Source: Caldimicrobium sp. (lineage in GTDB: Bacteria; Desulfobacterota; Thermodesulfobacteria; Thermodesulfobacteriales; Thermodesulfobacteriaceae). Taken from it: a stretch of DNA of 64,000 nucleotides. The DNA is taken from the NCBI GenBank assembly GCA_009903935.1, contig WYEG01000044.1, positions 990 through 64,989 of the forward strand, written 5' to 3'. The translations under genes were made by a program, and so were the position numbers. Below are positions 43,105-49,480 of this stretch, in pieces; within the stretch, counting starts at the first letter, position 1, and every line of letters starts with the position of its first letter. The notes below the pieces were generated by a model. It was given only the letters and a program-made list of their open reading frames with translations. It was not told the DNA's origin and did no database searches.

Positions 43105-44349
43105 TTAAAACATCTTTTCTGCTATATAAACTGTCAAATCTCCCATAAGATGAGTATATGAAGCCAATTCATTATCATACCATCCATAAACCACAACTTG
43201 AGTAATCGGAACCTCTATGTGAGAACAAAGTATATCTTTTATCTTTTCTTCAGAAAGTCCGCGACAAGCTTTAAATAAATCAACCTTAGCCAAAGCTGTC
43301 CTGGTGTGAGTTTCTCTTCCTTCGATGATGGCGGCTGCCTTTGGATACCCTATGATATCCGTCGACACGTTTTGCTCCATCGAGAATATTAGATATCCTT
43401 TGTATTTAGTTTCAGCTGCCTCCTTATAAATATTATTGATCAAATCTTTGGTAATATGATTTTCTAAACTTTCATCCTGAATGTTTACCGTTAAAATTAT
43501 CAAACTTCCAGTGGTTAAAGGTACTCTTACGCTCTCTGCTATGAAACCGACCTTCTGCATCTCAGGGATGACCAAACCTAAAGCCTCAGCCGCTCCGGTA
43601 GAGGTAAGGATGATGTTGTTAAAAACACTTCTTGCCCTTCTTAGGTCCTTTTCTCCTTCCTTTGGGACCCTATCAAGGATAGACTGAGAAGATGTTGTAG
43701 CATGCACGGTGACCATGGAAGCAGAGAGTATCCTTTCGGGACCAAAATAATCTAAAAGAGGTTTCATCATGTAGGCTAAGCATGTTGTGGTGCAAGATGC
43801 GGATGATATTAGGTGATGCTTTTGAGGATTATACATCTCTTCGTTTATTCCGTATACCATTGTGATTGCATCCTCAGGGATCCCTTTTTCTTTATCTTTG
43901 ACCTTAAAAGGAGCTGAAATGATAACCTTTTCTGCCCCAGCCTGAAAATGCCCACGAGCTGCGCCTTTAGGGTCATCAGGGGAGGCGTTTGGGTCTCTAA
44001 ATTTACCCGTGCAGTCTACTACAAGCTTTACCCCCTCCTCTCTCCATTCTATATCCTTAGGATTTCTGTTTTTCATCAAAAACTTCACCTTAACCCCATC
44101 GATCACCATCGTGCCTTCTTTCTCGTTGAGTTCTTCAATAACCCGATTGGCTTTATGCCCATACAACCACACAGGTAGCCAGCCGTAGGTGCTATCCTTT
44201 TCGATGTACTCCGCAAGGTCTTGGAAGGAGGTTCCTACCGTTCTACCAAGGTTTACCACAATTTCTTTAAAATGCTTACGAGCTACATGGTGCCAAAGGG
44301 TTAACTTACCTATCCTACCGAGCCCGTTTATACCAAGCTTCATAGGCAC
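43105..44349 (-). CDS. Long, divergent glyceraldehyde-3-phosphate dehydrogenase family paralog (414 aa)
   Basis: Rossmann motif INGLGRIGK. The catalytic Cys region SSASCTTTCLA and VTVHATT are retained, and several insertions are visible relative to the canonical 334-aa GapA at 48476-49480. Confidence 0.7.
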   Translation of the reverse strand: MPMKLGINGLGRIGKLTLWHHVARKHFKEIVVNLGRTVGTSFQDLAEYIEKDSTYGWLPVWLYGHKANRVIEELNEKEGTMVIDGVKVKFLMKNRNPKDIEWREEGVKLVVDCTGKFRDPNASPDDPKGAARGHFQAGAEKVIISAPFKVKDKEKGIPEDAITMVYGINEEMYNPQKHHLISSASCTTTCLAYMMKPLLDYFGPERILSASMVTVHATTSSQSILDRVPKEGEKDLRRARSVFNNIILTSTGAAEALGLVIPEMQKVGFIAESVRVPLTTGSLIILTVNIQDESLENHITKDLINNIYKEAAETKYKGYLIFSMEQNVSTDIIGYPKAAAIIEGRETHTRTALAKVDLFKACRGLSEEKIKDILCSHIEVPITQVVVYGWYDNELASYTHLMGDLTVYIAEKMF

Positions 44350-44369
44350 CTCCCTATGTGTGAATTCTT

Positions 44370-47300: not shown

Positions 47301-48476
47301 CCATTCAGGATTTTGTCTATAAATTTCTAACCAAACTTTAATATTTTGAACATGATAAGGATTTCTTTTAACTCTCCAATTTAAATCAATCCCAGTTATT
47401 GCCGGAGGTGTAAAACCGTATTTTAAAACCTCTTGAATAAAAACTTCAGTTAAATATACAGCTCTTTTCCTTAAAATAGCAGTTCCTATGCTTTTAATAC
47501 ATTCAAAAACTGTCCAAGGATAAAGATTAGACTTCTGTTTTAAAAATACAAAAAATTTAACGATAAACTCTTCAATGTGTTCGTGAGGTTTTGCCTCAAT
47601 CATTGAGACTAATATTTTATTAACATCACGAAGAAGCTCTTCATGTAATAAACCTAAATCTGAAATTTCTAATAAAGAAAGCAGAATGGATACCCTCTCT
47701 TCTTCACCCAGTGATGTTTCTTTATAACTGATAATTTTAAATATTACTTCCTTTAATATTCTTAATAACTCTAGGTGGTCTGGCAAAGATAATAATTCCT
47801 TTAAAGTCAGTAAAGTCAGATCCGTTTTTTCTATTAAATTGAAATTCTCAATTATTTCTTGATTTGATGGTAATTTGTCTTTAATTTGTCTATACAAACT
47901 GTAAACATTCGAAAAATATCGAATTAATAATTGCCTCGATAAAAATTCTAAATCTTCATCAACTATTTTTTCATTAATTAACCCTAATATCTTCTTTAAC
48001 GAAATCGCTATTTCAAAAAAAGTTTTAAATTGATTTTCATTTAGACCTAAGAATCTTTCAATCAAATTGTTAAATAAAAACTTTAATTTTATAATGTCTG
48101 TCACATTTTCTATTGTTTTTTTCAAAAGAGAGAGAATAATTTCACTAACTTTAGTATTGACATCTTTTTCTTCTCCATAAAATCCAAATAAAAGGTCAAA
48201 AAGCAATTGCAAAAATTGATCAAAAAATTCATTCTTGTAAATATAACCTACATTGTTAAGCAAAAAGAGCCTAAGCTCTTCAAGAACTAAGTGAGTATTT
48301 CTGTAAGGATGAAATACCTCTTTTAGTAGATTTTCAAACTGATTCTTTAAGGCTGGAAAGGATTGAAAAGCATGAATAAGAGGCTCATATTTTTTATCAA
48401 ATTCAACCTTTTCAATGTAAGTTTCTGCTAAATTTGCTAAATAAGCCTGAGAAACAAACTGTTCCTGCGTCTGCAT
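44370..48476 (-). CDS. 1368-aa protein: unknown helical N-terminal region + PPDK-type ATP-grasp + PEP-utilising phosphohistidine swivel domain (no PEP/pyruvate-binding domain)
   Basis: The C-terminal third carries PPDK-like motifs (NPLLLSVRSGAVISMPGMM, GTAILVQEMIFGN, GTGVVFT, QGEDIVSG, EIEFTFE) and the swivel motif TARGGQTSHAAIVANRLGK. It is an uninterrupted ORF whose ATG overlaps the gapA stop (TAATG). Confidence 0.75.
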   Translation of the reverse strand: MQTQEQFVSQAYLANLAETYIEKVEFDKKYEPLIHAFQSFPALKNQFENLLKEVFHPYRNTHLVLEELRLFLLNNVGYIYKNEFFDQFLQLLFDLLFGFYGEEKDVNTKVSEIILSLLKKTIENVTDIIKLKFLFNNLIERFLGLNENQFKTFFEIAISLKKILGLINEKIVDEDLEFLSRQLLIRYFSNVYSLYRQIKDKLPSNQEIIENFNLIEKTDLTLLTLKELLSLPDHLELLRILKEVIFKIISYKETSLGEEERVSILLSLLEISDLGLLHEELLRDVNKILVSMIEAKPHEHIEEFIVKFFVFLKQKSNLYPWTVFECIKSIGTAILRKRAVYLTEVFIQEVLKYGFTPPAITGIDLNWRVKRNPYHVQNIKVWLEIYRQNPEWCSSLLIGLIIYIKLYGVSINDTDLFQREISNLLNSDIKHTYNQVKQFCRNIPVFFHEIGAEGLIRDLSTYLDEIYGRKNTLFHFLRKFIHVESSSLVVNFMENIMRFWFTLNPSHIAKYVPDVLLNKIISEEFKYHLEMQNILFSIFKVIGIYEIEKLFEFKVEQIERYISSINADNNLKNVFLNFLRLYNLIRQKYYFSLSDLEELIREYSVLGFKFVEELPRVLNEKKLYEQIDIILTWLLHLKEHYILSSEKFQKKEEIIKKRHIAADIPSIFGRYSEPKFDALGLSFRLEWILNSLFAKLTEEFKFQIFSESTMKKILNIMKLFKTALEVDGISSQRFNHYLHILENSLLSYPLTFNQYVDIFKGLLEGVQHIIKSYYINPYFNNFALIYEVLDKKNLLEKYKKVLTGKKTEEAFHTLLEILLRDIISESFVIKHLDNFLKKVYNSLIQLKNMYTKDELNMLLTYDYDKSISYLHKPDNEATDTIYLGNKAYNLLLLSTEENVKVKIPYGFVLTTELFRIYPLLKKYKQIWALYEDLIKAGVQYIESSTGKQFNSLDNPLLLSVRSGAVISMPGMMSSILNVGINPTIVESLAKISGNEWFAWDTYRRFLQSWAMANGIPRDVFNALMRDHKRRYNVKKKREFSGEQMKELAFLYRKKIEEYGVPVIDDPWEQLFKCIELIFNSWYFQKATFYREIMGIAEEWGTAILVQEMIFGNLKPDSGTGVVFTTSPYGKFPRVALWGDYTPYNQGEDIVSGLVNAYPISIEQKKIEGREGEALEEAFPEIYNALLDLAYYLVYEKGWDHQEIEFTFEGPKREDLYILQVRDIHLREEKYIPYFKISFLKNLPLIGKGIGVSGTILSGRVVFSLEDIENLKPTQDPLILLRYDTVPDNIREISLVDGLLTARGGQTSHAAIVANRLGKVCVVGCEELRIDDEKKLAKIKDFEIKLYDWITLNGMTGDVYYGKIASKVV

Positions 48477-49480
48477 TAACTTTCAAACTTAGAAATATAA
48501 TTAATTAAATCTAATAATCTTACTGAATAACCCCATTCATTATCATACCAAGCTATTACTTTAATCATCTTCTTATCGACAACCTTGGTTAACAATCCGT
48601 CAACGATCGCGCTATGAGGGTCTCCTACAAGGTCCATTGATACTAACGGCTCCTCTATGTAGGCAAGGTAACGATTTTGGTTCTCTTTAAAAATTTTATT
48701 CACTTCCTCTACAGAGGTTTCTTCTTTAACCTGTAAGACTAAATCTATCAAAGAAACATCGGGAGTTGGGACCCTTATCGACATTCCCTCAATTTTTTCA
48801 GCAAGGTGGGGTAAAACCTTCTTTAAAGCCTTAGCAACCCCTGTAGTAGTCGGGACCATGTTTAAAGCTGCGGCTCTTGCCCGCCTAAAATCGCTTTTAT
48901 GAACCATGTCAAGAAGTCTTTGGTCGTTTGTGTAGGCGTGAACCGTGGTCATCATCCCCCTTTCGATCGTAAAATGCTGATCAAGGAGCTTTAAAACAGG
49001 AGCTAAACAATTGGTCGTGCAGGAGGCATTGGAGATGATGAAGTGCTTTTTAGGGTCGTAGACTTCTTCGTTCACCCCCATCACAATGGTTACATCTTCA
49101 CCTTTAGCTGGTGCGGAAATGATCACCCTTTTAACAGTTCCCCTAAGATGAGCTTTTGCTAATTCGGCGTCCGTAAAAAAACCTGTAGATTCGATAACAT
49201 AGTCTACGCCAACCTCTTCCCAGGGGATTTTAGCAGGGTCCTTTTCTTGAAATATCTTTATCTCCTTTTGATTAACTACCATGGAATCGCTCTTAATTTC
49301 CACTTGATATGGAAGCTTCCCGAAGATAGTATCATACTTAAACAAATGGGCGATCATTTCAGGGTTTGCAAGGTCGTTAATAGCTACGATTTCAAAATTG
49401 TTAAACTCAGGATATTTAAACCGTGCCCTAAGCACTGCTCTACCAATCCTTCCAAAACCGTTAATCCCTACTCTTAACAT
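48476..49480 (-). CDS. gapA: Glyceraldehyde-3-phosphate dehydrogenase, type I
   Basis: [21 protein letters not shown] and WYDNEWGYS. 334 aa. Confidence 0.95.

Follow-up and report, generated by a model that had tools for sequence, protein, structure and literature searches.

A giant gene lies between two genes of the glyceraldehyde-3-phosphate dehydrogenase (GAPDH) family in Caldimicrobium sp., and the three very probably belong to a real, ancient module of lower glycolysis/gluconeogenesis, in which the giant and the second dehydrogenase are obligate, physically interacting partners. The trio was found in 64,000 nucleotides of contig WYEG01000044.1 (assembly GCA_009903935.1, positions 990 to 64,989), called here the window, whose numbering is used throughout; all three genes are on the minus strand. 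The first, gapS (48476-49480), encodes a canonical type I GAPDH of 334 amino acids (aa). The second (44370-48476), hereafter the giant, encodes a 1368-aa phospho-histidine enzyme derived from pyruvate, phosphate dikinase (PPDK) but devoid of its barrel domain. The third, gapL (43105-44343), encodes 412 aa when counted from its ATG and belongs to a long GAPDH subfamily. What, then, could the giant be doing to its partner? Our tentative answer is that it may be a phospho-histidine transferase which passes a phosphoryl group onto GapL, thereby acting as a switch that senses ATP and phosphate (Pi) against AMP and pyrophosphate (PPi).

Conservation of the trio

The first-pass annotation of this DNA had suggested, from gene order, that the giant and the GAPDH genes are functionally linked. 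Comparative data now back this link: synteny is conserved, and giant and gapL co-occur almost perfectly across genomes. Within the order, all three families keep gapS-giant-gapL, with full-length giant orthologues and, in Thermodesulfobacteria, gapS 5′ of the giant. The same gene order is also present in other families of the phylum, while the Desulfobulbales have gapS-giant, and Nitrospirota and other metagenome-assembled genomes (MAGs) have giant-gapL. Giant and gapL adjoin among unrelated genes on a Dissulfurispiraceae (Nitrospirota) contig, in a MAG labelled Proteobacteria and on a contig of unknown affiliation; even a divergent, 1480-aa member of the giant family is followed by a gapL-like gene. 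The Desulfobulbales carriers include Desulfobulbus, Desulfocapsa, Desulfurivibrio, Electrothrix and others, and a canonical gapS stands about 130 bp upstream of the giant at 29 of their 62 loci. This recurrence led us to drop the idea that gapS is merely a lineage-specific neighbor. As for gapL, it is found elsewhere in the genome in all eight of the giant-carrying Desulfobulbales genomes tested.

Co-occurrence was scored for the giant's N-terminal domain and the gapL orthologue across 151 evenly sampled genomes of the phylum. Both were present in 37 genomes and neither in 108; four genomes had gapL only, three of them being 61-66% complete, and the two with the giant only contained mere remnants of it. 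An intact giant was thus never seen without gapL in this sample (Fisher p = 3e-28, a value inflated by shared ancestry, with carriers spanning about 20 families). The two genes adjoin in 31 of the 37 co-carriers. Six or seven of these pairs are convergent, which argues that their adjacency is not mere operon hitch-hiking.

The same annotation had placed the giant in the slot usually held by pgk, the gene for phosphoglycerate kinase (PGK). As it had observed, the window contains no pgk, and the sole copy in this genome is on another contig (G000:C29). The slot, on the other hand, is not the giant's: pgk-tpiA-secG directly follows gapL in many relatives, and pgk is immediately 3′ of gapL in families f2 and f3 and genera g3 and g4. 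One other family of the phylum has the string lptB-rpoN-hpf-ptsN-rapZ-EIIA-x-gapS-giant-gapL-pgk-tpiA-secG, and a second has rimI-giant-gapL-gapS-pgk-tpiA-secG at the end of its own. The pair gapL-pgk persists even where gapL has parted from the giant. It is therefore gapL that occupies the canonical gap position, the giant being an extra gene inside a gap-pgk-tpiA-secG operon, and pgk has simply moved out of this place in the lineage of the window. Replacement of PGK by the giant was rejected as well, since pgk is present in 40 of 41 relatives (the exception being a 64%-complete genome), often right after gapL. This disposes of the simplest form of the acyl-phosphate (1,3-bisphosphoglycerate) function that the first-pass annotation had proposed, though other forms of it may hold.

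The giant: a PPDK without its barrel

The giant family numbers at least 579 loci in the species genomes of GTDB and 808 representatives of 50% clusters, and the full-length members listed are nearly all of 1350-1450 aa. Full-text literature searches returned nothing on this family, nor on the long GAPDH.

Its C-terminal half is clearly related to PPDK. A PPDK-type ATP-grasp domain, delimited by PF01326 and the family profile, spans aa 877-1222 (44811-45848, minus strand), with the PPDK_N (PF01326) match itself at residues 883-1165 (85 bits). It is followed by the phospho-histidine swivel domain at aa 1275-1356 (44409-44654, minus strand; PEP-utilizers, PF00391, 59 bits), which includes His1308 in the motif GGQTSHAAIVA (codon 44553-44555). 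The giant family profile matches residues 16-338 of the solved PPDK 1kbl with E = 1.5e-127, and the C-terminal half as a whole covers PPDK residues 16-512, i.e., the nucleotide-binding and His domains (E = 1e-127). Phosphoenolpyruvate (PEP) synthase, rifampin phosphotransferase and Enzyme I are matched far more weakly. When invariance is defined as at least 97% conservation in 112 full-length giants, down to 24% identity, the invariant residues comprise K886, R961, R1003/R1004, E1202/E1204, Q1219 and R1221 in the ATP-grasp domain and the swivel motif GGxTSH1308A, with G1303, G1304, S1307, H1308 and A1309. All of the ATP-grasp and phospho-histidine motifs of PPDK are kept, so by analogy with PPDK the ATP-to-His half-reaction of the giant should work.

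The PEP/pyruvate TIM barrel (PEP-utilizers_C, PF02896), by contrast, has no Pfam match in the giant. Public annotations call the family PPDK, PEP synthase or “PEP/pyruvate-binding protein,” names which are wrong because this defining domain is missing. None of the established families takes the giant in: with the best NCBIfam match, TIGR01828, it reaches 363.6 bits where 843.45 are required. The corresponding figures are 70 and 740 for PEP synthase (TIGR01418), 18 and 342 for Enzyme I of the phosphotransferase system (PTS; TIGR01417), which has the barrel that the giant lacks, and 30.7 and 999 for rifampin phosphotransferase (NF041857). Nor is it a glucan water dikinase, as Pfam finds no carbohydrate-binding module (CBM), such as CBM45 or CBM20, in it and its ATP-grasp precedes its His domain.

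Two giants are interrupted. In the complete genome G011, the gene (L032) is split into two overlapping open reading frames (ORFs) of 651 and 794 aa, and in G002 (L004/L024) one in-frame TAA lies near the poorly conserved N-terminus. Both genomes nonetheless keep gapL with its ETHTRT motif, described below, intact. Such interruptions may mark genes that have recently become pseudogenes, may be errors of sequencing, or may be splits that the protein tolerates.

An orphan N-terminal domain

In front of the catalytic half lies an all-helical domain of some 875 residues (aa 1-875; 45852-48476, minus strand) with an orphan fold. It has no match in Pfam at E <= 10 and none in a profile search of PDB sequences. 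An AlphaFold2 (AF2) model (mean confidence, pLDDT, 84; pTM 0.75) is all-alpha with one beta-hairpin, and a Foldseek search of it against the PDB retrieves only weak, generic HEAT/ARM solenoid noise (TM <= 0.2). A model of the core alone (residues 340-790, pLDDT 82) finds no analogue in the PDB either, the best E being 0.2. No glycoside-hydrolase-like or CBM-like fold was detected by Foldseek with the domain models, and rifampin phosphotransferase was not retrieved.

Residues 1-350 are poorly conserved, but two cores are conserved as strongly as the PPDK catalytic parts. Core I (aa 351-500; 46977-47426, minus strand) contains invariant W367, H375, D413, R457, D464, R478, K479 and H482. Core II (aa 651-700; 46377-46526, minus strand) forms the beta-hairpin E652...K657-R658-H659...S666...Y671-x-E673, whose tip is flexible: in the AF2 model, the strands run from 651 to 658 and from 666 to 672, with a low-confidence loop at 658-664. 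With K588, Y589, Q754 and D833, this makes about 19 invariant polar residues.

The N-domain core is always joined to PPDK_N and PEP-utilizers, and has no other partner domain beyond an occasional hemerythrin. The latter is a sensor-type (HHE) domain fused to the N-terminus of some giants, such as L122 (P0236) and P0238. In the one context seen for such a fusion, no gap gene is near, and the neighbors encode an SH3 protein and a GGDEF protein. The coding DNA of the N-domain has a G+C content of 26.6%, as compared with 38.6% for the C-terminal part of the giant, 40-42% for the two gap genes and 40% for the window. This could reflect relaxed constraint under AT mutational pressure, or a composition rich in Lys, Ile, Asn and Phe.

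GapS and GapL

The two dehydrogenases are of different kinds. GapS scores 428 bits with TIGR01534, above the cut-off of 367 for type I GAPDH, and contains the Pfam domains Gp_dh_N and Gp_dh_C. It has its catalytic Cys154 (SCTTN) and His181 (TVHA), and the Asp of its VAINDL motif makes it an NAD type.

GapL falls below the same cut-off (344 bits against 367.2) because of six conserved insertions, seen in alignment to solved GAPDHs and across phyla. Its catalytic pair is retained as Cys184 (SCTTT) and His214 (TVHA), the equivalents of Cys149 and His176. So are both phosphate sites, i.e., the equivalents of Thr179, Arg195, Thr208, Arg231 and Asn313 in the motifs DLRRAR, TSTGAA, VRVP and WYDNE, with Arg or Lys at position 195. 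The Cys/His pair and the phosphate-site residues persist across phyla at 52-74% identity. Since gapL is the sole GAPDH-family gene in the complete genomes G008 and G011, its product is predicted to be a working GAPDH. In place of VAIND it has VVNLGR (VVNxGR across phyla), so that an Asp32 equivalent is lacking, and it has an Arg at position 187. Both are positions that set the NAD/NADP preference of GAPDH (PMC9145139), and GapL probably uses NADP(H), as the missing Asp32 and Arg187 suggest.

The largest insertion comprises E-T-H-T-R-T and, after it, a loop of some 31 aa. It extends over aa 344-381 (ETH346TR348T...C360...C373-S-H375...PIT; 43201-43314, minus strand), with the codon of His346 at 43306-43308. 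The ETHTRT motif is present in 114 of the 120 closest gapL cluster representatives, and carriers in every phylum examined have it as well. The cysteines C360 and C373, often accompanied by H375, are kept in Thermodesulfobacteria and in some Desulfobulbales, not in all phyla, and are lost where the giant is absent. They could make up a redox or metal site; the pair recalls chloroplast GapB, whose C-terminal extension carries two cysteines.

Natural deletions of the giant

Thermodesulfobacterium-like lineages have lost the giant by deletion on at least two independent occasions. In lineage 1 (L134, L135) the locus reads rimI-gapS-[130 bp]-gapL-nusB. In lineage 2 (L031, L136, L137) it reads gapS-[0.6-1.1 kb]-gapL, and L031 retains only codons 6-73 of the giant. 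The two lineages are not sisters in the gapL tree, where lineage 2 is nested in a giant-bearing clade and both stand on long branches.

What happens to GapL once its partner is gone? Seventeen giant-bearing relatives provide a reference of 269 invariant columns, 20 of which are within residues 344-381, and the concentration of changes in that segment was assessed with a hypergeometric test. In lineage 1, P0182 has 13 changes at invariant columns, seven of them in 344-381 (p = 5e-6). In lineage 2, the counts are 10 out of 14 for P0190 (p = 3e-10) and 8 out of 13 for P0189 (p = 2e-7). The same residues were altered independently: H346 became N or Y, R348 became I, H or C, C360 became H or D, and H375 became S or was deleted. 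Selection therefore maintains the loop of 344-381 essentially only where a giant accompanies it, which is what a contact or acceptor site would show. Elsewhere, in the complete genome G155, which lacks the giant, the motif of the gapL-like gene reads ETETTF and the loop is missing, and ETRTRT replaces ETHTRT in G131 and G164. An exception is G050 (66% complete), in which no giant was found and ETHTRT is retained.

A phosphorylation switch on GapL?

From these observations we infer that giant and GapL touch, and tentatively propose the following sequence of events. The ATP-grasp domain would load His1308 of the swivel domain in the reversible reaction ATP + Pi -> AMP + PPi + His~P, as its fully conserved motifs imply. 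The swivel domain would then deliver the phosphoryl group to the orphan N-domain, at its conserved polar site, where GapL would be docked through its E-T-H346-T-R348-T loop. There the group would be handed to GapL, perhaps to His346 in its H-x-R motif, much as Enzyme I hands it to HPr. Since the reactions of PPDK run both ways, the extent to which GapL is phosphorylated would reflect ATP·Pi versus AMP·PPi and, in lineages with a fused hemerythrin, O2 or redox state as well. The outcome may be a choice of the enzyme carrying the flux, either the Asp32-less GapL, which is probably NADP-accepting and anabolic, or the NAD-type product of gapS, which is presumably co-transcribed. Transfer to GapL is favored because of the fate of the loop and because pgk is retained in the same operon; the fusions with hemerythrin and the solenoid-like build of the N-domain speak for it too. 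As carriers keep pgk, no substitute for PGK is needed.

Several points weigh against this proposal. We know of no PPDK-type ATP-grasp/swivel enzyme that phosphorylates a protein, and to our knowledge the characterized barrel-less relatives (rifampin phosphotransferase, glucan water dikinase and phenylphosphate synthase) all act on small molecules or polymers. The 19 or so invariant polar residues of the N-domain resemble a small-molecule active site more than a docking surface. The likeness of H-x-R in GapL to His15/Arg17 of HPr is one that we presume. A close relative with an intact giant (G001/L003) has ETQTRT, with Gln in place of His346, so that this histidine cannot be an absolute requirement, unless the system of that relative is in decay. 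In G008 and G011 the giant persists alongside a single GAPDH, which means that isoenzyme switching is not the whole story, and the shared ancestry behind the co-occurrence statistic must also be borne in mind.

If the acceptor is not a protein, the obvious small molecule is 3-phosphoglycerate (3-PG). The giant would then be a 3-phosphoglycerate, phosphate dikinase catalyzing ATP + Pi + 3-PG <-> AMP + PPi + 1,3-bisphosphoglycerate (1,3-BPG). The N-domain would bind 3-PG, His1308~P would phosphorylate its carboxylate, and a docked GapL would reduce the resulting 1,3-BPG with NAD(P)H. Giant and GapL would thus be the anabolic counterpart of gapS and PGK, just as PPDK or PpsA is to pyruvate kinase, and in the reverse direction they would offer an outlet consuming AMP and PPi. 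We regard this as unlikely, although it accounts for a good deal. The partner of the giant is a GAPDH, which handles an acyl phosphate, and by established PPDK chemistry a phospho-histidine is energetic enough to form one; GapL retains both phosphate sites and the Cys/His pair, and its missing Asp32 and Arg187 fit NADP(H) use (PMC9145139). The invariant charged and polar residues in the two N-domain cores, conserved like those of the catalytic domains, are also what a substrate site would require. An operon holding two GAPDHs, PGK and the giant could encode two parallel two-step modules, and docking for the sake of channeling explains equally well why the loop decays after loss of the giant. 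All characterized barrel-less relatives that we know of, moreover, have non-protein acceptors. On the other side, carriers keep pgk, often directly after gapL, which would make such a bypass redundant and expose the cell to a futile cycle; the giant has been lost while gapL, gapS and pgk stayed; an 875-aa domain seems an extravagant means of binding a three-carbon acid; and hemerythrin fusions are better suited to a regulator. Salvage of AMP and PPi tied to dissimilatory sulfate activation as a necessary condition was also tried and set aside, AprB being present in just 28 of the 37 carriers. Carriers are enriched for AprB all the same, 37 of the 114 other genomes having it.

A dikinase for some other acceptor (a glycolytic intermediate, a nucleotide, Pi or a glucan) is decidedly doubtful. 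The GAPDH neighborhood would in that case reflect shared regulation of carbon metabolism and not a shared reaction. The base rate speaks for it, as barrel-less dikinases act on diverse acceptors, and so does the likeness of the N-domain to an active site. In the Desulfobulbales, furthermore, the block aroK-aroC-glgA-gapS-giant (L052-L114) places a GT5/GT1 glycogen synthase gene just upstream of gapS in 25 of 62 loci. Such a dikinase would, however, leave unexplained both the near-perfect co-occurrence with gapL in particular and the fact that a loop specific to gapL decays once the giant is lost. For a glucan, the case is weaker still: the near-complete carriers G009, G017 and G020 have no GT5 glycogen synthase, Pfam finds no carbohydrate-binding module, Foldseek detects neither a glycoside-hydrolase-like nor a CBM-like fold, and the giant has its ATP-grasp before its His domain, the reverse of the arrangement in glucan water dikinase.

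It is improbable, too, that the giant and GapL form a PTS-like relay. In that scheme, His1308~P would charge His346 of GapL, and phospho-GapL would phosphorylate bound 3-PG, so that 1,3-BPG would be made and reduced on a single enzyme without being released.

Could the trio be nothing but a by-product of a compact genome? Its flanks are just as tightly packed (rimI overlaps gapS and nusB almost touches gapL). The idea is contradicted by the comparative data, and we give it very little credence: synteny is maintained in three families of the order, in further families of the phylum and, with different flanks, on a Dissulfurispiraceae contig, the co-occurrence of giant and gapL is far from random, their adjacency is kept even when they are convergent, and the gapL loop decays when the giant is lost. 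Least credible of all is a split PPDK, in which a separately encoded PEP/pyruvate TIM barrel would complete the ATP-grasp and His domains, for although the C-terminal half is nearest to true PPDK (TIGR01828 and the PDB PPDKs being its best matches) and public annotations say PPDK or PEP synthase, the TIGR01828 score is far under its cut-off, the conserved 875-aa N-domain would have no explanation, and the only PEP-utilizers_C domain in the genome is inside an ordinary 831-aa PpsA.

Locus anatomy

The junctions of the trio can be read directly from the DNA. The stop codon of gapS and the start codon of the giant share TAATG (48474-48478, minus strand), as the first-pass annotation had noted. 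It had also counted 20 nt, containing GGGAGG, from the giant's stop to the ATG of gapL. The GGGAGG is indeed there, but 20 nt leads to a GTG at 44349; the spacer from the giant's TAA to the ATG at 44343 is 26 nt (44344-44369, minus strand). The ATG is the most likely start, because the GTG sits within the Shine-Dalgarno sequence GGGAGGTG (GGGAGG, 44349-44354).

That the three co-oriented genes are tightly joined is equally clear, yet this does not mark them out as a unit. The GNAT (rimI-like) gene upstream (49461-49931, minus strand), a neighbor kept in relatives, overlaps gapS by 20 nt, and nusB (42622-43092, minus strand) starts 12 nt past gapL, at the position taken by pgk-tpiA-secG in other lineages. 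The whole string lptB-rpoN-hpf-rapZ-rimI-gapS-giant-gapL-nusB is compact, the trio being no tighter than its flanks. Translational coupling is thus weak evidence for a link, as every neighboring gene is packed equally tightly.

No terminator-like site was found on the minus strand at either the gapS/giant or the giant/gapL junction. A sigma-70-like consensus match (ATGACA-17-TAAAAT with a TG extension) is present at 44417-44389 on the minus strand, within the last codons of the giant and about 45 nt 5′ of the gapL ATG. Judging from the consensus match alone, gapL may have an internal promoter here, the number of such sites in the region being barely over shuffled expectation.

Further upstream, the rpoN cluster of the window (49461-53435) consists of lptB-rpoN-hpf-rapZ-rimI and has no ptsN. 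In L120, from a relative in another family, ptsN (EIIA-2) separates hpf from rapZ, and an EIIA-man gene follows rapZ. On the other side of the trio, a small HNH-endonuclease-like ORF (40488-40832) overlaps the 5′ end of a dtd-like ORF (40055-40651), and the small ORF is kept beside cmk in relatives.

A possible new element of central carbon metabolism

The GAPDH/PGK step is among the most studied of reactions, and it is thought to be complete without further dedicated proteins. The giant stands inside the gap-pgk-tpiA operon across hundreds of species of Thermodesulfobacteria and Desulfobulbales (including the cable bacteria) and in one Dissulfurispiraceae (Nitrospirota) genome, and it co-evolves with a GAPDH subfamily of its own. 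Whichever mechanism proves true, this would be a new element in the central carbon metabolism of energy-limited anaerobes, either a switch that acts on a GAPDH isoenzyme through phospho-histidine or a way to 1,3-BPG that is linked to AMP/PPi, and in both cases a first function for an orphan fold. Should the relay be real, it would amount to a “3-phosphoglycerate reductase” system in the trunk of gluconeogenesis, coupled to AMP/PPi and independent of PGK, and, run in reverse, to a substrate-level phosphorylation of AMP + PPi to ATP in anaerobes of the sulfur cycle. Given the natural deletions and a loop mapped to H346, R348, C360 and H375, two recombinant proteins would suffice to put the question to a direct test.

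Comparison with known systems

PPDK (EC 2.7.9.1; Clostridium symbiosum 1KBL/1DIK) is the closest known relative of the giant. The two share a homologous ATP-grasp domain and phospho-histidine swivel, and the giant keeps the PPDK motifs LGNK, SVRSGAxxSMPGMM, YRRF, GEDIVSG, QEIEFT, LQxR and GGxTSHAA. Unlike PPDK, it has no TIM barrel, its additional domain of 875 aa is a helical orphan placed at the N-terminus and not at the C-terminus, and its genomic ties are with GAPDH and not with pyruvate metabolism. Rifampin phosphotransferase (5FBS/5HV1), alpha-glucan water dikinase and phenylphosphate synthase likewise combine ATP-grasp and swivel-His domains and have the barrel replaced by another acceptor-binding module. 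In rifampin phosphotransferase, however, that module lies between the ATP-grasp and His domains, whereas the extra domain of the giant is N-terminal and structurally unrelated to it. None of these barrel-less dikinases is known to have a dedicated dehydrogenase partner.

The comparison with Enzyme I of the PTS concerns the same swivel phospho-histidine domain family (with a weak TIGR01417/PtsI match) and the presence, in Enzyme I, of a helical domain for docking its partner. Enzyme I is charged by PEP through its TIM barrel, while the giant is predicted to be charged by ATP through its ATP-grasp domain. GapL is a 412-aa dehydrogenase and does not have the fold of HPr, and phosphorylation of a protein by the giant is only proposed. 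Within the genome of the window, no Enzyme I-type PEP-utilizers_C domain exists besides that of PpsA.

As regulators, AceK and the PPDK regulatory protein come to mind: these set a precedent for a large, operon-encoded enzyme that serves a single target in central metabolism, which it phosphorylates reversibly in response to adenylate status. They are not homologous to the giant; they phosphorylate Ser/Thr, have a protein-kinase-like or DUF299 fold and are devoid of a phospho-histidine swivel.

For GapL, the nearest parallel is the GapA/GapB pair of Bacillus, where a genome likewise contains two GAPDHs, one of NAD type and one without Asp32. The ArsJ-associated GAPDH is another, as a GAPDH paralogue locked to a partner gene (NF033735 is among the matches), and Epd is also a dedicated paralogue. 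What sets gapL apart from all of these is its six insertions, its THTRT loop and its operon shared with an NAD-type twin. It differs from the other dedicated GAPDHs, finally, in that it is sometimes the sole GAPDH of the cell, and in that its partner is a phosphotransferase of 1368 aa.

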